Of a stretch of DNA of 64,000 nucleotides, positions 11,626 through 48,191 are shown one piece after another (positions within the stretch are counted from its first letter, which is position 1; the number at the start of each line of letters is the position of its first letter). The stretch is from the IMG/VR virus record IMGVR_UViG_3300023174_006137, positions 95,492 through 159,491 of that record, one strand, 5' to 3'. The notes beneath the pieces were generated by a model, which worked only from the letters and a program-made list of their open reading frames with translations, was not told where the DNA came from and made no database searches. The translations under genes and the position numbers were made by a program. This DNA is from a virus.

Positions 11626-11631
11626 ATGTAG

Positions 11632-11714
11632 TTGCCAAGACAGGACTCGAACCTGTATTTACTTCTCGTCCTCCGCTTTCAAAGAGCGGGATGCTACCAT
11701 TACACCACTTGGCA
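11632..11714 (-). tRNA. tRNA-Gln(UUG), long variable region
   Basis: CCGCT-CT TTG AA-AGCGG; canonical GGTTCGAGTCC. Confidence 0.85.
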
Positions 11715-12986: not shown

Positions 12987-12992
12987 ATTTCG

Positions 12993-13077
12993 TCTGGGTG
13001 ACAGGGCTCGAACCTGCATAAGATGTTAATCATTCTCCTGTCCAAGAGGAGTCGGCTTCCATTGCCTTCACACCCAG
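12993..13077 (-). tRNA. tRNA-Pro(UGG), long variable region
   Basis: C1-G72, A73; CTCCT-CT TGG AC-AGGAG. Confidence 0.8.
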
Positions 13078-18099: not shown

Positions 18100-18105
18100 A
18101 TTTTG

Positions 18106-18191
18106 TACCGCTAGCAGGACTCGAACCTGCACTATCTTTACAGAAAACGGATTATGAGTCCGTCACAATTACCACATCTGCTCATAGCGGC
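18106..18191 (-). tRNA. tRNA-Met/Ile2(CAU), long variable region
   Basis: ACGGA-CT CAT AA-TCCGT; cognate leader has internal ATG codons, favouring Met. Confidence 0.75.
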
Positions 18192-18197
18192 ATATTT

Positions 18198-18476
18198 TTA
18201 TACTCTTTTACTTCTCCATTTAATAAACTTTTTCACATCAGGATGTTCTAAAAGTTTTTCCTTTGTATTATATGTTAAGCCCATTTCTTTTTCAGTTATG
18301 AACCGATGTATTTGCCCATGACAATAAAATTTACATATCCAAATACCATGATTTTTCAAATAATCTTTATCATAATTCTTTTTGAAGAACTTATTTGAAT
18401 GCAAAGTCCTTGGAATTAAATGATGAAAATTTAAATAATCATTTGTTGAGCCACACAATTCACATTTATCTATCAT
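18198..18476 (-). CDS. Small HNH-type nuclease-like protein
   Basis: CELCG..L.FHHLIP...C..CH.QIH. Confidence 0.7.
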   Translation of the reverse strand: MIDKCELCGSTNDYLNFHHLIPRTLHSNKFFKKNYDKDYLKNHGIWICKFYCHGQIHRFITEKEMGLTYNTKEKLLEHPDVKKFIKWRSKRV

Positions 18477-19421: not shown

Positions 19422-19456
19422 GTAGAATTATTTTTTCTTATATATAAATTTTTTTG

Positions 19457-19545
19457 AGTGCAAAACAGGATTCGAACCTGTGATGTTGGAATTTACCAAG
19501 ACACTTTTGCAGAGTGCCGCTTTCGACCACTTAGACTACTTGCAC
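19457..19545 (-). tRNA. tRNA-Cys(GCA), long variable arm
   Basis: GCACT-CT GCA AA-AGTGT; U73. Confidence 0.8.
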
Positions 19546-20187: not shown

Positions 20188-20194
20188 ATTTTTG

Positions 20195-20281
20195 TGATCC
20201 TAACAGGATTCGAACCTGTGTTAACATTTACTGCCTCAGGCTTGTAAAACCTGCGCTCTAAACCAACTGAGCTATAGGATC
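20195..20281 (-). tRNA. tRNA-Val(UAC), long variable region
   Basis: CAGGT-TT TAC AA-GCCTG. Confidence 0.82.
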
Positions 20282-40285: not shown

Positions 40286-40630
40286 TTAAAGTCTTTCAGA
40301 TTTTTTATAGGCTAATTCATAACTGGAATTAATCTTTTTATAAAGATTTTCTGCTGTAAATTCCTTTAAATAATCTCCTTTATTCTCAATTATATATTTT
40401 TCTGTATACCCACAATTAAATTGCTCGGCTTTAAAATGACAACCATCATAACAATCACATAGTGTTATGCCATTTTCCTTACAATATCCACCATTTGGCA
40501 TTAACTTTCTATTTGTAATATGATGTGCATCTAGCTTTGCATCCGTTCTGCCACACATAACACATTTAAAATTATCTCTTTCAAATACATCTTTACGAAA
40601 TTTTTCTCTAATTTGTTGTTTTATCTTCAT
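40286..40630 (-). CDS. HNH endonuclease
   Basis: VFERDNFKCVMCG, LDAHHI, NGITLC...CH. Confidence 0.82.
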   Translation of the reverse strand: MKIKQQIREKFRKDVFERDNFKCVMCGRTDAKLDAHHITNRKLMPNGGYCKENGITLCDCYDGCHFKAEQFNCGYTEKYIIENKGDYLKEFTAENLYKKINSSYELAYKKSERL

Positions 40631-40719: not shown

Positions 40720-40724
40720 ATTAG

Positions 40725-40811
40725 TGACTCCAGAAGGATTCGAACCCTCATAAAACATATACTGTCTCCCCGTTCGTAGCGGGGCGTTTTAATCCATTAA
40801 ACTATGGAGCC
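40725..40811 (-). tRNA. tRNA-Arg(ACG), long variable region
   Basis: CCCCG-CT ACG AA-CGGGG. Confidence 0.82.
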
Positions 40812-41058: not shown

Positions 41059-41143
41059 CGGTAGATACAGGATTCGAACCTGTGGAGCCCGAAGGCTCGG
41101 CAGTTTAGCAAACTGCTGGTATAGACCACTCACCCAATCTACC
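41059..41143 (-). tRNA. tRNA-Ser(GCU)
   Basis: GCAGT-TT GCT AA-ACTGC; V-arm GAGCC TTCG GGCTC; G73. Confidence 0.92.
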
Positions 41144-41330: not shown

Positions 41331-41861
41331 TTATCCAAACCTACTTAAAATAAAATCATCATCGTCATCATCGTCATCATCATTATCACTTTCGTCGATA
41401 ATATAATTTTCAATTTCCTTTTTTAATATATTACATTTTTCATAATTCTCGTTATATAATGCTTTAGCATATTCAGAATACAAAATTAAAAGATCGTCAT
41501 CATATTTACACAATTTGGAAATCTCATCATATAATTCATAATCCTTCATTTGTTCTGTATTATCATGTTCCAATTCATAATTATAAGTCATATTTTCTAT
41601 TTCTTCGTCAGTTTTATTTTCAAAATCTTTATCACGAAACCCTAATGCATATGCAAATTCTTTTATAGTTGGTATATTCTCAATATTTTCTTTTTTTAAT
41701 CTTTCCAAATATCCATCATACATTTGTTTCAAAGTAAATAAATCACCAGTTTTAAGATTTGATTGTTCTAGTTCATATCTTTTAAGAGATAAGTCAACTA
41801 TTTTTTGATTAAAAATAGACTCTTTTAATAAAAATAATTTATAATTGTTAATATATTTCAT
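41331..41861 (-). CDS. Acidic late protein with UVR-like motif and poly-Asp tail
   Basis: MKYINNYKLFLLKE; ALYNENYEKC..LK.EI; poly-D run. Confidence 0.55.
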   Translation of the reverse strand: MKYINNYKLFLLKESIFNQKIVDLSLKRYELEQSNLKTGDLFTLKQMYDGYLERLKKENIENIPTIKEFAYALGFRDKDFENKTDEEIENMTYNYELEHDNTEQMKDYELYDEISKLCKYDDDLLILYSEYAKALYNENYEKCNILKKEIENYIIDESDNDDDDDDDDDFILSRFG

Positions 41862-41952
41862 ATAAGTATATATTTATTTAAAAATATCATAAATATGCAA
41901 GCGTTCTATCCAATCCTTTAAATTATAATATAGATTATTTGTGAGTTCGTTG

Positions 41953-42025
41953 TCCGCCTGCCGGGAATCGAACCCGGCCCCATAGTTTAAAAGACTATTG
42001 CCTACAACCAGTTTGCTACAAGCGG
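41953..42025 (-). tRNA. tRNA-Lys(UUU)
   Basis: ATAGT-CT TTT AA-ACTAT. Confidence 0.85.
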
Positions 42026-42034
42026 TTAAACTTG

Positions 42035-42109
42035 TGTCCCCAGTAGGATTCGAACCTACAACCCGTTGGTTAAAAGCCAACTACTCTAAGCCAATTGAGC
42101 TATGAGGAC
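42035..42109 (-). tRNA. tRNA-Lys(UUU)
   Basis: GTTGG-CT TTT AA-CCAAC. Confidence 0.92.
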
Positions 42110-42196
42110 TAATTTTGTTAAGCACTCACTACTAATTGGTGCTTAACTAACCTGTTTCTGTTTTCGTTTTATTTGTTTCATACAATAATTTTTTTG

Positions 42197-42284
42197 CGGC
42201 AGATTAGAGAGTTCAACTCTAACAACGGATGATTACGTTCTAGCAATTTTCAAGATTGTGTACCTCAGTCAACTGGGATCTGCC
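42197..42284 (-). tRNA. tRNA-Ser(UGA), atypical D/T arms
   Basis: CAAT-CT TGA AA-ATTG; long V-arm; G73. Confidence 0.62.
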
Positions 42285-42291
42285 ATTTCTG

Positions 42292-42375
42292 CGGAAGTTG
42301 ACGGACTCGAACCCTCACAGCTTTTACACCTTCACCGTTTTCAAAACGGCTAACTACTCCTAATTAGGAACTTCC
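42292..42375 (-). tRNA. tRNA-Ser(UGA), atypical D-arm
   Basis: GCCGT-TT TGA AA-ACGGT; long V-arm; G73. Confidence 0.72.
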
Positions 42376-42380
42376 AATTG

Positions 42381-42457
42381 CACGGGTTGTAGGATTTTCA
42401 CCATTTAAACATTAACTTCCTTGCCGGAAGGTGTCTTAAATTTTAGACGAAACCCGT
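42381..42457 (-). pseudogene. Degenerate tRNA-like element overlapping the HNH stop codon
   Basis: Acceptor ACGGGTT/AACCCGT and D-stem GTCT/AGAC present, but 5-nt anticodon loop and broken T-arm. Confidence 0.5.
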
Positions 42458-43315
42458 ATTTTTATATTGTTTTAACCATTTTCTTATTACAGCCTCACTT
42501 ACTCCAAATAATTTACCTGTTCCTGTATTTCCGTTTTCTTTAACAAGTTTCATTAATTCTTCATAAGAAGGTCTATTTTTCACTTTTCTTTGTTTTATAG
42601 AACTACATATTTTGCATAATTTGCTATCTTTTGATATAATTTTACCACAAAAACATTTTTTATGTGTTTTTTCATTTTTATATTCATCTAATTCTTTATC
42701 ATACAATCTTTTAGTTTTATTGCTCCCACAATTAGTTTCCAAGGTAGAATTGCAATTAGGACAAACTATTCTTAAATTTTCAAGACGATTATCATAAGCA
42801 TCACCATTTATATGATCAAGTATATGAACTATTTTAGAATCATTAAACCAATTTTCATCTTGTCCGCATATTTCACAAATTTTATTTTTTATACCTTCTT
42901 TATATAATTTATTTTTTATTACTTTTCTCGAAACAAAAGAATCTTTATTCAGTATATCATCCAAATTTAAAGAATTTTTTGGCTTATTGCCTAACTTAAA
43001 ACCAGATTCAAAATGCTCAATATCTATATTATATAATTTTATATATTTTTTAATTGTTTGAAAATTACCAGAACATCGTGGTGATAAACCTAATTTTATT
43101 ATACATTCTGTATAACTTTTACACTCTTCAACTAATTTTTCAAATTCTTCTTTATTTTCATAAATATATGTTCTTTTTAATTTCAATTTTTTTGCCATTT
43201 CTTGACATGCTCTTTTTGTTCTACCAATCATATTGGCACAATAATCAGCACCCATTTTTGGAAAAAAATCACATAATAACTCTTTTTCTTTTTCTAACCA
43301 TTCATTCGAACTCAT
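42443..43315 (-). CDS. HNH homing endonuclease
   Basis: CEICG..W, LDHINGD..DNRLENLRIVCPNC, C-terminal HTH (GVSE..IRKW). Confidence 0.88.
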   Translation of the reverse strand: MSSNEWLEKEKELLCDFFPKMGADYCANMIGRTKRACQEMAKKLKLKRTYIYENKEEFEKLVEECKSYTECIIKLGLSPRCSGNFQTIKKYIKLYNIDIEHFESGFKLGNKPKNSLNLDDILNKDSFVSRKVIKNKLYKEGIKNKICEICGQDENWFNDSKIVHILDHINGDAYDNRLENLRIVCPNCNSTLETNCGSNKTKRLYDKELDEYKNEKTHKKCFCGKIISKDSKLCKICSSIKQRKVKNRPSYEELMKLVKENGNTGTGKLFGVSEAVIRKWLKQYKNTGFV

Positions 43316-43363
43316 ATTTTTACATTTGTTTAACTTATATATAAAAATATGAGTTCGCCCCTT

Positions 43364-43438
43364 TGGTGGTATCTACAGGTAACGATCCTGACTCTAATGT
43401 GCTTCAAACATTCGCTAATCCATCTCAGCTAAGATACC
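43364..43438 (-). tRNA. tRNA-Phe(GAA), CCA encoded
   Basis: AATGT-TT GAA GC-ACATT; T-loop ATCGTTA. Confidence 0.82.
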
Positions 43439-43444
43439 ATATTG

Positions 43445-43515
43445 CACGAGTTACAGAAATCGAATCCGTTCGACAAGGGTTTTGGAGACCCTCCGGCTAC
43501 CTTAGCCTAACTCGT
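43445..43515 (-). tRNA. tRNA-Trp(CCA)
   Basis: AGGGT-CT CCA AA-ACCCT; G73; compact D-arm. Confidence 0.8.
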
Positions 43516-43521
43516 ATTTAG

Positions 43522-43612
43522 GGCGATATGTGGGATTCAAACCCACGGTGTTTGATACAATCTCATTCAGGGTCACAGCCTGATTCCTTCGTTCACTCGG
43601 ACCAATACCGCC
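43522..43612 (-). tRNA. tRNA-His(GUG), long variable region, G-1 encoded
   Basis: TCAGG-CT GTG AC-CCTGA; G-1:C73. Confidence 0.78.
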
Positions 43613-43676
43613 ATTTTTACACTCTTCACCAGATTAACGGACTGGCTGCCATATAGGAAGTGAGTGTAAAACTCCG

Positions 43677-43750
43677 GGAGTAAGACGGGGATCGAACCCG
43701 CTGCCTCAGGTGCCACAAACCTGCGCTCTACCAAATGAGCTACCTACTCC
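43677..43750 (-). tRNA. tRNA-His(GUG), G-1 encoded
   Basis: CAGGT-TT GTG GC-ACCTG; G-1:C73. Confidence 0.88.
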
Positions 43751-43756
43751 ATATAC

Positions 43757-43788
43757 AAAAAAAGCCGAACTATATAGTTCGGCTTTTT
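43757..43788 (-). terminator. Attenuator terminator of the His/Trp/Phe/Ser/Lys operon
   Basis: AAAAAGCCGAACT-ATAT-AGTTCGGC-T7. Confidence 0.9.
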
Positions 43789-43810
43789 ATTTCTTAAAAC
43801 AATAACTCTT

Positions 43811-43903
43811 TTATGAAGTCTTGTTATTGAAACATAACTCTACCGAACTCTGATTTCTAAACCAGAATTTAAACGAATGTTTATGTGAGCTAAAATGTTT
43901 CAT
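43811..43903 (-). promoter_or_regulatory. Leader peptide MKHFSSHKHSFKFWFRNQSSVELCFNNKTS (K/H/F/S/W attenuator)
   Basis: 14 consecutive K/H/F/S/W codons; AGTTCGGT is complementary to terminator GCCGAACT. Confidence 0.9.
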
Positions 43904-43952
43904 AAAATACTTTTTTAAAATTATTATTGTTTTTGTTTTTATTTTTATTTAG

Positions 43953-44024
43953 TAGCGGGGAGTGGACTTGAACCACTGATCTCTGGGTTATGAGCCCAGC
44001 AAGATGCCGCTTCTCTACCCCGCA
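43953..44024 (-). tRNA. Initiator tRNA-fMet(CAU)
   Basis: CTGGG-CT CAT AA-CCCAG (three G-C pairs); 1:72 mismatch. Confidence 0.88.
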
Positions 44025-44057
44025 GTATGTCTTTTTTATTTGTTTTTTATTATAAAG

Positions 44058-44088
44058 CAAAAGTAAGAAAAAGTTTTTGATTTACAAA
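44058..44088 (-). promoter_or_regulatory. Bacteroidota sigma70-type promoter of tRNA operon 6 (second copy at 44142-44172)
   Basis: TTTG ... TACTTTTG. Confidence 0.7.
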
Positions 44089-44233
44089 ATTTATTTTAAT
44101 TTTCTTTTCTTTTTTATCTTTACTTTCTTTGTTATTTTATACAAAAATACAAAGAAGTTTTGAAATAACAAAATTATTTTTATATTTTTATTTAATGTAT
44201 ATATTATATTTAAAATATGGTTTTTTGCACTTT

Positions 44234-46910: not shown

Positions 46911-48191
46911 TTAAATTAACTTATTTCTCAATCCCGGCATATAAATCTCCAACAAAGAAATCAATTCCTCTTTAATTTCAGGTTTAATATTTTTTGTTCT
47001 TTCTTTATTAACCAAAGTCATAAACTCAGAAACAACTTTATTAAACTTAAACGATTCAGTATAATTGAAAACGGTTGTTTTAAACCTTTCAATATCAATT
47101 TCATCATCTCCTTCACGACTCATCCATTCTTTAAATCTATTAACAAAACGAGTTATGCCTTTCATATTCTTATCACTCCAAGAACCACCATCAAAATAAT
47201 GACCAATAAACATCAAATAAAATCTCAATTCATCTTGATCATATTCATCAGGGTTAATTGTATTTCCTTTTGATTTAGACATTTTTTCACCACCATTCAA
47301 TATCATACCCTGATGAATTACCTTCTTAAAAGGTTCTTCTTCTGATACAACATCAATATCATACAAAAACATATTAATAAATCTAGCATAAATCAAATGC
47401 ATACAAGAATGTTCATTACCACCTACATACAAATCAACCTGTTTGTATTTATCTTTAGCACACAATTCATTTTCGTTATATGGATCACAATAACGAACAA
47501 AATAAAAACTAGAATCAAAAAAAGTATCAATTGTATCTGTTTCACCTTCAATCGGAATAGGACAACCCCATTTTCGTTGGCGACTAATACACCAATCATG
47601 CTGATTTTCCAACCAATTTCTTTGTGCGTTTATGGTGCTTTCTGGTAAACCACTAATAGGCAAATTATTAATCAATCTATCTTTATAGTCAGTGATTTTA
47701 ACATACCATTGTTCCATTTCTCTTTGCTCTACATCAGTAGAACATCTATCACATTTACCATTTTTAACTTGCTCTCTGGCCAATACAGTTTCACAGCTAT
47801 TACACCAATTTACGATTCCATTTGCTTTGTATATCAAACCACGCTTATACATTTCCAAAAATAACCATTGAGTCCATTTTTGATAAGATGGGTCAGAAGT
47901 AATTAAATATTCAATAAATCCTGTATTCATATTTTTCATTTGAACACGGAATTTATCTATATTTTCGTATGTAATTTCTTTTGGATCTCTACCTACTTTT
48001 TTAGCATAGTTTTCAGCAGGCAACCCAAAGGAATCGAACCCAAAAGGTTGGAATACACTTATACCATTATATCGTTTATAACGACAAAATGAATCCATTA
48101 TTGCATAGTTATACACATGACCGATATGCAACCCATCACCAGATGGGTAAGGAAACATAACAGTTATATACATTTCTTCGTTGTTATACAT
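46911..48191 (-). CDS. leuS: Minimal leucyl-tRNA synthetase (no CP1 editing domain)
   Basis: MFPYPSG..LHIGH, FDSFGLPAEN.A, DWCISRQR.WG.PIP, TF.DSS.YF.RY, YVGG.EH...HL.YARF, KMSKS; only 426 aa. Confidence 0.9.
   Translation of the reverse strand: MYNNEEMYITVMFPYPSGDGLHIGHVYNYAIMDSFCRYKRYNGISVFQPFGFDSFGLPAENYAKKVGRDPKEITYENIDKFRVQMKNMNTGFIEYLITSDPSYQKWTQWLFLEMYKRGLIYKANGIVNWCNSCETVLAREQVKNGKCDRCSTDVEQREMEQWYVKITDYKDRLINNLPISGLPESTINAQRNWLENQHDWCISRQRKWGCPIPIEGETDTIDTFFDSSFYFVRYCDPYNENELCAKDKYKQVDLYVGGNEHSCMHLIYARFINMFLYDIDVVSEEEPFKKVIHQGMILNGGEKMSKSKGNTINPDEYDQDELRFYLMFIGHYFDGGSWSDKNMKGITRFVNRFKEWMSREGDDEIDIERFKTTVFNYTESFKFNKVVSEFMTLVNKERTKNIKPEIKEELISLLEIYMPGLRNKLI

Follow-up and report, generated by a model that had tools for sequence, protein, structure and literature searches.

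Organization of module 6

The virus record IMGVR_UViG_3300023174_006137 comprises 159,491 bp with a G+C content of 26%, and its final 64 kb (64,000 nucleotides (nt), positions 95,492 to 159,491; this whole stretch is called the window, and its coordinates are used throughout) carries 39 tRNA genes according to ARAGORN, all on the minus strand, together with about seven further ones recognized by Rfam and by relaxed ARAGORN settings, which brings the total to about 46; no tRNA gene occurs in the first 95 kb of the genome. We describe here one group of these genes, module 6, which lies on the minus strand and in which a gene for an initiator-type tRNA with the anticodon CAU is followed by a short leader open reading frame (ORF), an intrinsic terminator and a series of further tRNA genes. 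Based on the computational evidence presented below, we consider it very probable that module 6 is a multivalent leader-peptide attenuator which gates phage tRNA genes.

From 44172 down to 41952, the module consists of two tandem promoters, tRNA(CAU), a spacer, the leader ORF, the terminator and the gated genes, which succeed one another in the order His, His, Trp, Phe, an HNH gene, a tRNA-like element, Ser(UGA), a degenerate copy of Ser, Lys and Lys (Table 1). The initial annotation, whose span (41953-44088) has the last Lys tRNA at one end and the proximal promoter at the other, had listed two His, Trp, Phe, two Ser-UGA and two Lys genes; this content holds except for Ser-UGA, for which there is one clear gene and one degenerate copy. 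The promoters were found by scanning for TTTG, 18-20 nt and TAnnTTTG, the housekeeping-type promoter of Bacteroidota (-33 TTTG, -7 TAnnTTTG). This motif occurs 16 times on the minus strand of the window and once on the plus strand, for 2.7 occurrences expected on both strands in block shuffles, and one copy is found upstream of every leader in the window. Both elements, with a spacing of about 19 nt, precede the transcription unit of module 6 and constitute its predicted promoters; from the type of motif, the host probably belongs to the Bacteroidota. No promoter motif was detected on the minus strand between 44058 and 41329, where the promoter of the next module lies, nor in particular between the HNH ORF and the tRNA genes downstream of it. 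The Ser and Lys tRNA genes, located 1.4-1.9 kb downstream, therefore depend on the module 6 promoters, which fits the Ser and Lys codons present in the leader.

DNA matching the window is present in freshwater lake metagenomes, as found by a search of public runs. Completeness estimates of the CheckV type, obtained for relatives, suggest that the record and its closest kin are fragments of far larger genomes, so that other tRNA genes of this phage may be unseen.

Table 1. Features of module 6 and their coordinates in the window
Feature	Coordinates	Strand	Basis or remark
Upstream promoter motif, Bacteroidota type (TTTG, 19-nt spacer, TAnnTTTG)	44142..44172	-	Regex scan, sequence checked
Proximal promoter motif, Bacteroidota type	44058..44088	-	Regex scan; 33 nt upstream of tRNA(CAU)
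Initiator-type tRNA(CAU)	43952..44024	-	ARAGORN; Rfam tRNA 58.8 bits; cloverleaf
A-rich spacer, 48 nt	43904..43951	-	From tRNA(CAU) to leader start codon
Leader ORF, 30 codons + TAA	43811..43903	-	Codons 2-15 (43900-43859) form the regulatory run
Hairpin 1:2, 9-10 pairs, -6.8 kcal/mol	43846..43869	-	5' arm in codons 12-15; 3' arm shared in part with the antiterminator strand
Region 2, upstream antiterminator strand	43842..43849	-	Codons 19-21; pairs with 43783-43776
Intrinsic terminator (regions 3 and 4)	43757..43788	-	13-pair stem, 4-nt loop, seven-T tract
Gated block one (His, spacer, His, Trp, Phe)	43364..43749	-	
tRNA-His(GUG)	43749-43676	-	
tRNA-His(GUG), 91 nt	43611-43521	-	Long variable arm
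tRNA-Trp(CCA)	43515-43444	-	
tRNA-Phe(GAA)	43438-43364	-	
HNH homing-endonuclease-like ORF, 290 aa	42443..43315	-	Within the tRNA operon; Pfam HNH + HTH_28
Gated block two (tRNA-like element, Ser(UGA), degenerate Ser, Lys x2)	41952..42457	-	
tRNA-like element	42383-42457	-	Acceptor-like stem, 5-pair stem with 5-nt loop; counterpart at L001 15659-15735
tRNA-Ser(UGA)	42375-42291	-	Relaxed ARAGORN threshold only
Degenerate Ser(UGA)-like element	42284-42196	-	Acceptor stem and T arm fold, z -2.3
tRNA-Lys(UUU)	42109-42034	-	
tRNA-Lys(UUU)	42025-41952	-	

A leader reading frame matched to the downstream tRNA genes

As the initial annotation had stated, codons 2-15 of the leader all specify Lys, His, Phe, Ser or Trp: there are three Lys (AAA), three His (CAT), four Phe (TTT three times and TTC), three Ser (AGC, TCA and TCG) and one Trp codon. 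When all ATG-started frames with at least 15 open codons were scored in the six frames of the entire 159,491-bp genome (2261 frames), this run was the unique maximum with 14/14, followed by a runner-up with 11/14. The leader is a short ORF rich in codons cognate to the regulated products, as expected of an attenuator, and 13 of the 14 run codons are readable by anticodons encoded in the module 6 operon itself. The correspondence extends to the other leaders. Among the 5040 ways of pairing the seven leaders of the window with its seven operons, the true one scores highest, in a test which used whole peptides and no chosen sub-windows; for ten leaders from five other phages, none of 200,000 random permutations equalled or surpassed the true assignment.

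Relatives were retrieved with a synthetase-like gene situated about 3 kb upstream of module 6 and with a degenerate pattern covering part of the leader. The former gene (46911-48191) encodes a 426-residue class I aminoacyl-tRNA synthetase core, which NCBIfam places nearest to bacterial leucyl-tRNA synthetase (LeuRS), of which it has half the length; it is found at 59-80% identity in 31 IMG/VR contigs, many of them of 450-520 kb. Pfam had proposed a methionyl-tRNA synthetase-like protein, an assignment that we discarded in view of the NCBIfam result, and the gene thus offers no connection with the initiator tRNA. A blastn search of GenBank phages with the whole module returned only tRNA-sized matches and no syntenic relative. 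The window belongs to a clade of six (the window, L001, which is the same contig as L061, L032, L059, L060 and L062). All six share the promoter, one or two CAU tRNA genes, the same leader, the terminator and the continuation from tRNA-His onward. Across the clade, codons 1-15 of the leader differ only by a single synonymous change, in contrast to the ORF tail and the spacers, which diverge. Farther away, a 508-kb phage (G005, locus L041) harbors a diverged but homologous leader rich in Ser, His, Lys, Phe and Trp codons, located behind a promoter and ahead of an array of His, Lys, Trp, Phe, His, Phe and three Lys tRNA genes.

These observations bear on the trivial explanation of a short frame left open by chance in AT-rich DNA, followed by a hairpin that only terminates transcription of an upstream unit. 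Lys and Phe codons are indeed common in such DNA; however, the 14/14 score is unique and includes three His codons and one Trp codon, both permutation tests oppose a coincidence, the run is conserved at the codon level between flanks that diverge, and the homologous leader of the distant phage again precedes a His/Lys/Trp/Phe array. We consider a chance origin highly improbable.

A predicted choice between terminator and antiterminator

An intrinsic terminator separates the leader ORF from the first regulated gene and ends 7 nt ahead of tRNA-His. Its 5' arm contains region 3 (43783-43776), which is common to the terminator helix 3:4 (-16.6 kcal/mol) and to an antiterminator helix 2:3 (8 pairs, -10.7 kcal/mol). 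Since helix 2:3 shares bases with both hairpin 1:2 and helix 3:4, it is predicted to be mutually exclusive with each of them. When the first 42-48 nt were masked to mimic a stalled ribosome and the transcript was cut before the 3' arm of the terminator, helix 2:3 was the predicted fold in the window and in L001. The best duplex between the 5' arm of the terminator and the upstream RNA has a z of -3.2 in the window, where none of 200 shuffles was as strong, and values of -3.2, -2.8 and -3.2 were obtained for L001, L032 and the distant homolog L041, respectively. An antiterminator that excludes the terminator and is governed by ribosome position is therefore predicted in the window as well as in L001, L032 and L041.

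The conservation of these helices was assessed by eye and by folding each sequence where alignments contained gaps (L041, and the terminator base in the six-sequence set). Hairpin 1:2 is preserved in L001 through changes of U-A to U.G. At one position of the antiterminator, the A:U pair of the window corresponds to G.U in L001 and L032 and to G:C in L041, and the base of the terminator stem, beside the core, covaries among the six clade members (G:C, U:A, A:U). The 6-nt core which pairs in both 2:3 and 3:4, and its partner in codons 19-21, are invariant in the six sequences; even the synonymous sites of codons 19-21 do not vary, despite the variable ORF tail.

The distance between leader and terminator is also constrained. 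In 15 of the 17 attenuators examined (those of the window and of loci L001, L032, L034-L036, L040, L041, L045, L046 and L053), the leader stop codon precedes the terminator stem by 21-29 nt, counted to its first base, and the phage attenuators seem to follow this distance as a fixed rule of design. Such a spacing suggests that an undelayed ribosome does not vacate region 2 and the ORF tail before terminator formation is complete. From standard footprint sizes, a ribosome stalled at roughly codons 8-14 would cover region 1 and leave region 2 free, and all five amino acids of the run occur within these codons.

Several observations weigh against an attenuator of this kind. The run codon AGC cannot be read by the tRNAs of the operon and requires Ser(GCU), which is encoded at 41143 as the leading tRNA of the following operon. 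About half of the other leaders give no significant result in the duplex test. The antiterminator core is invariant in the clade, and direct covariation in helix 2:3 is limited to one position compared with one distant homolog. Finally, the terminator is more stable than the antiterminator and equilibrium folds of the full RNA always give the terminator; consequently, the choice to read through would need to be kinetic, as in the trp attenuator.

Could the leader codons act by another route, such as Rho-dependent polarity or the stability of a transcript protected by ribosomes, without a choice between antiterminator and terminator? The prevalence of the terminator in equilibrium folds under all masks, the weak outcome of the duplex test for about half of the leaders, and the A-rich, unstructured nature of the spacer and ORF tail would be compatible with such a scheme. 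Yet it does not explain why a canonical intrinsic terminator with a T tract follows the leaders at the regular distance from the stop codon mentioned above, nor why region 2 and the terminator arm are complementary far beyond shuffled sequences in module 6 and its homologs. Moreover, stalling uncouples the ribosome from the polymerase and thereby favors Rho, which would give the wrong regulatory sign for a supply loop. Such a mechanism is in our opinion unlikely, and the attenuator proposed in the initial annotation is well supported computationally by the codon run, the terminator, the exclusive antiterminator, the five related contigs and the L041 homolog.

The initiator-type tRNA gene ahead of the proposed gate

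The tRNA(CAU) encoded at 44024-43952 displays a U1 x U72 mismatch, A11:U24, three consecutive G:C pairs closing the anticodon stem, and A73. Positions 1 and 72 are thus unpaired as in initiators, although through U1 x U72 and not the usual C x A; the same U1 x U72 and A73 are found in the orthologs from G001, G002, G003, G004 and G005. The G:C triplet and A11:U24 are both typical of initiators, some orthologs having just two G:C pairs. The second CAU tRNA of the window (18191-18105) is elongator-like: its positions 1 and 72 pair, it has C11:G24, it lacks the G:C triplet, and its variable arm is long. It lies downstream of a leader in which three internal Met codons occur. The identification of the former as the formylmethionine initiator by the initial annotation appears reasonable on these marks.

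This gene lies between both promoter motifs and the leader, and, as had been claimed, no other of the approximately 46 tRNA genes of the window is so placed. The spacer that separates it from the leader contains no promoter motif, hairpin terminator or Shine-Dalgarno sequence. By its position, the initiator tRNA gene is predicted to escape the gate. Each of the six clade members has a similarly short tRNA-to-leader distance, with an A-rich spacer of about 30-50 nt, and L001 and L060 carry two copies of the CAU tRNA gene ahead of the leader.

Such a constant arrangement might reflect a role of the upstream tRNA in cis, either as a folded 5' block that keeps upstream RNA from pairing with segments of the leader or as an RNase P/Z site that sets the 5' end of the leader RNA; the amount of tRNA produced would then be immaterial. 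The short and similar distances across the clade are the argument for it. However, the other five leaders of the window have the same attenuator features without any upstream tRNA, and the number of upstream copies varies between one and two. A role in cis is thus very unlikely.

The initial annotation had suggested checking for the same placement in related phages, and the outcome of this comparison is mixed. Orthologs of the initiator-type tRNA, with 71-88% identity, occur in 11 other phage records. In G001 (L034) and G005 (L036) the gene is directly upstream of a Tyr/Glu-type and a Thr/Leu/Val/Asn-type leader, respectively, with a second promoter, in the form usual for the phage, between gene and leader; these initiators are likewise predicted to be ungated despite the intervening promoter. 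Against a general rule, the initiator of G004 (L035) lies about 160 nt after a leader rich in Thr, Lys and Gly codons and its terminator, with no promoter motif between them, and an initiator-type tRNA gene of G008 (L053; A1 x A72, G:C triplet) occupies a mid-array position downstream of a leader with its terminator. Within the clade itself, the only CAU tRNA preceding the leader in L032 and L062 has a weak A:U or U:A pair at 1:72, so that its initiator identity is less certain. In G002, G003, G009, G011, G013, G014 and G017 the initiator adjoins no leader. Counting the clade of six as one lineage, the gene is ungated and adjacent to a leader in about three lineages and gated in two.

These data leave room for the explanation that the attenuator is real while the upstream position of the initiator is a historical accident, due to promoter loss or tRNA insertion, and not a product of selection. 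The window layout is only one promoter loss away from that of G001 and G005, where a different leader has its own promoter; the seven records without an adjacent leader and the two gated initiators point in the same direction, and the six concordant sequences, as a single clade, represent one evolutionary event. Conversely, three separate operon contexts (Lys/His/Phe/Ser/Trp, Tyr/Glu in G001 and Thr/Leu/Val/Asn in G005) place the initiator directly ahead of a leader, the initiator is the lone ungated gene among the approximately 46 of the window (a chance of about 1/46 if random, a post hoc figure), and the elongator Met tRNA is gated by a leader containing Met codons. We therefore regard a historical accident as quite possible, if somewhat doubtful. 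That the position was selected, because stalling cannot report a shortage of the initiator and an untranslated leader would terminate, is a credible suggestion that we make tentatively, since the comparative data are mixed. Of the corresponding claim in the initial annotation, the ungated placement is borne out by the sequence, and its selection for this reason is plausible without amounting to a general rule.

Two further arrangements were observed near initiator genes. In three clade members, a motif of about 20 nt (ACAGG, two variable bases, AAATATCTG) occurs twice between the promoter and the initiator tRNA (L032 2420-2474, L059 85-139, L060 5198-5252), and it is found once after the initiator of G001 (L034 1584-1603). 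It is absent from the genome of the window and is thus not part of module 6. In the more distant loci L055-L058 (G011, G013, G014, G017), a lone initiator-type tRNA gene is preceded by up to six tandem, near-identical promoter-like 32-mers spaced 80-300 nt apart.

The presumably gated genes and their surroundings

The HNH gene interrupting the operon has a counterpart at the matching position in L001. HNH genes are located in or beside three tRNA operons of the window (42443-43315, 18198-18476 and 40286-40630). The tRNA-like element that follows overlaps the HNH stop codon and was not called as a tRNA by ARAGORN or Rfam; in its 5-pair stem, the window and L001 differ by a compensatory change. 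The degenerate Ser(UGA)-like element was likewise not called by either program. A lake metagenome contig (X7) joins 42194 to 42290, which indicates a related strain without the degenerate copy (42195-42289). The 64-nt spacer between the two His tRNA genes (43612-43675) can form a 10-pair hairpin (z -1.9), and the corresponding gap in L001 is longer and holds the 3' half of a tRNA-like sequence. Several isotypes that normally have a short variable region (His, Met, Cys, Val, Arg, Gln and Pro) are represented in the window by copies of 84-91 nt with a stem-forming variable arm (43521-43611, 18105-18191, 19456-19545, 20194-20281, 40724-40811, 11631-11714 and 12992-13077), each usually adjoined by a copy of normal length. 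Between module 6 and the promoter of module 5 lies an ORF for an acidic protein of 176 residues ending in nine Asp (41331-41861); there is no terminator after the last Lys tRNA gene, and read-through at the module 6 gate may be the only means by which this ORF is expressed.

In Rfam searches of the window and of the module 6 region, nothing but tRNAs scored above threshold; sub-threshold matches to small-RNA and leader families over the terminator were dismissed as noise. The one metatranscriptome (X15) among the public runs yielded a single 216-nt contig that matches 43560-43775 with one mismatch at a depth of 2.3; from the terminator loop onward, it takes in both His tRNAs. This contig may stem from a read-through precursor or from contaminating DNA, and is uninformative on transcript levels, ends and the initiator tRNA. 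A high depth over 43925-43999 was rejected as a phage signal, as it consists of 37-nt pieces with five mismatches derived from the initiator tRNAs of other organisms.

Proposed mechanism

Gene order, motifs, pairings and their conservation are seen in the sequence; we infer how stalling would act, in which direction regulation would run and what would be gained by the position of the initiator. Transcription from one or both host-type promoters would yield the initiator-type tRNA first, after which ribosomes would load at the A-rich spacer and translate the leader. When Lys, His, Phe, Ser and Trp codons are decoded rapidly, the ribosome would trail the polymerase through codons 19-21, or hairpin 1:2 would re-form behind it; with region 2 unavailable, the 13-pair terminator would form and transcription would stop about 7 nt before tRNA-His. 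If any codon of the run is slow, for instance when charged tRNAs are scarce after host shut-off or the action of a tRNA-cleaving defense, the ribosome would stall at about codons 8-14, covering region 1 and freeing region 2. Region 2 could then pair with the emerging 5' arm of the terminator and allow the polymerase to read into the His, His, Trp, Phe, HNH, Ser, Lys and Lys genes, and the new tRNAs would speed up translation of the leader, closing the loop.

The output of the initiator gene, located before the gate, would track promoter firing alone. Initiator tRNA is required to start every leader, and an untranslated leader would by default terminate; keeping the initiator outside the loop would thus avoid a deadlock. 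The complete explanation, in which a multivalent ribosome-mediated attenuator gates a tRNA operon instead of an amino-acid operon, with the initiator placed before the gate, is probable. A more far-reaching version, in which each elongator group is supplied on demand and the initiator is deliberately the sole always-on input, so that gene order encodes a control hierarchy, is possible but doubtful. If it were true, all six operons would lock off without initiation, and the ungated initiator would rank above the gated elongators.

Should the gating itself be confirmed, the virus would gauge the decoding capacity of the infected cell codon by codon and top up exactly those tRNAs that are short. 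This would address, in a concrete and testable manner, the long-standing question in what way and at what time large phages employ their extensive tRNA sets, and would provide a link to host defenses which cut or deplete tRNAs. The position of the initiator raises a question of design, namely whether a tRNA whose shortage stalling cannot report is kept outside the loop. Module 6 is well suited to such tests, being compact (about 330 nt from promoter to terminator), with five amino acids sensed and natural variants available.

Comparison with known systems

The general mechanism of multivalent leader-peptide attenuators has been described (PMC1183508). Like the enterobacterial attenuators of ilvGMEDA and thr, or of his, trp, phe and leu, module 6 combines a short leader ORF with regulatory codons, a terminator and a ribosome-dependent antiterminator, and, as in the multivalent ones, a single leader senses several amino acids. 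The differences are considerable, however. Module 6 would regulate tRNA genes, so that the sensed molecules would be the products themselves in a direct supply loop; it would sense five amino acids in a run of 14 codons; its stop codon lies about 25 nt before the terminator and not between regions 1 and 2; and it is borne by a phage, lacks a Shine-Dalgarno sequence and has a Bacteroidota-type promoter. The regulated genes encode tRNAs and a homing endonuclease and no proteins of amino-acid biosynthesis or a related function, and module 6 is thus a variant of the leader attenuator and not a member of a described leader family; the Rfam leader families score far below threshold in the module 6 region. 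Leader-peptide attenuation is a textbook mechanism which, as far as we found, has been described for protein-coding genes only: a full-text literature search, in which not all journals are covered, retrieved no account of tRNA genes controlled by leader peptides or by attenuation, whether in phages or in other systems.

Components of the translation machinery are controlled in comparable ways in other systems. In Escherichia coli, pheST, which encodes an aminoacyl-tRNA synthetase, is subject to leader-peptide attenuation through the pheM leader; in contrast to module 6, pheST is a protein-coding target, concerns a single amino acid and is not carried by a phage. T-box riboswitches also sense tRNA charging and switch between terminator and antiterminator before translation-related genes, but they bind the tRNA directly by means of a specifier codon and need neither a ribosome nor an ORF; no T-box or other cis-regulatory family of Rfam was found above threshold in the window or in the module 6 region. 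The layout of module 6 is reminiscent of the thrU-tyrU-glyT-thrT-tufB operon of E. coli, in which tRNAs share a promoter and a primary transcript with a downstream ORF and are released by processing. There, however, the ORF is a full protein gene and no attenuator is present, whereas the ORF of module 6 is a predicted regulatory leader that would decide on the transcription of further tRNA genes.

Phage tRNA sets have been considered as a means to counter the depletion or cleavage of host tRNAs, in work on tRNA sequence features which evade nucleases (PMC10264068). That work provides the same rationale for a phage to supply its own tRNAs when those of the host are lost, although no sensing or regulation of phage tRNA genes is described there. 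Compared with all these systems, module 6 would be a known kind of mechanism with a new target, the tRNA genes, and with a closed supply loop.

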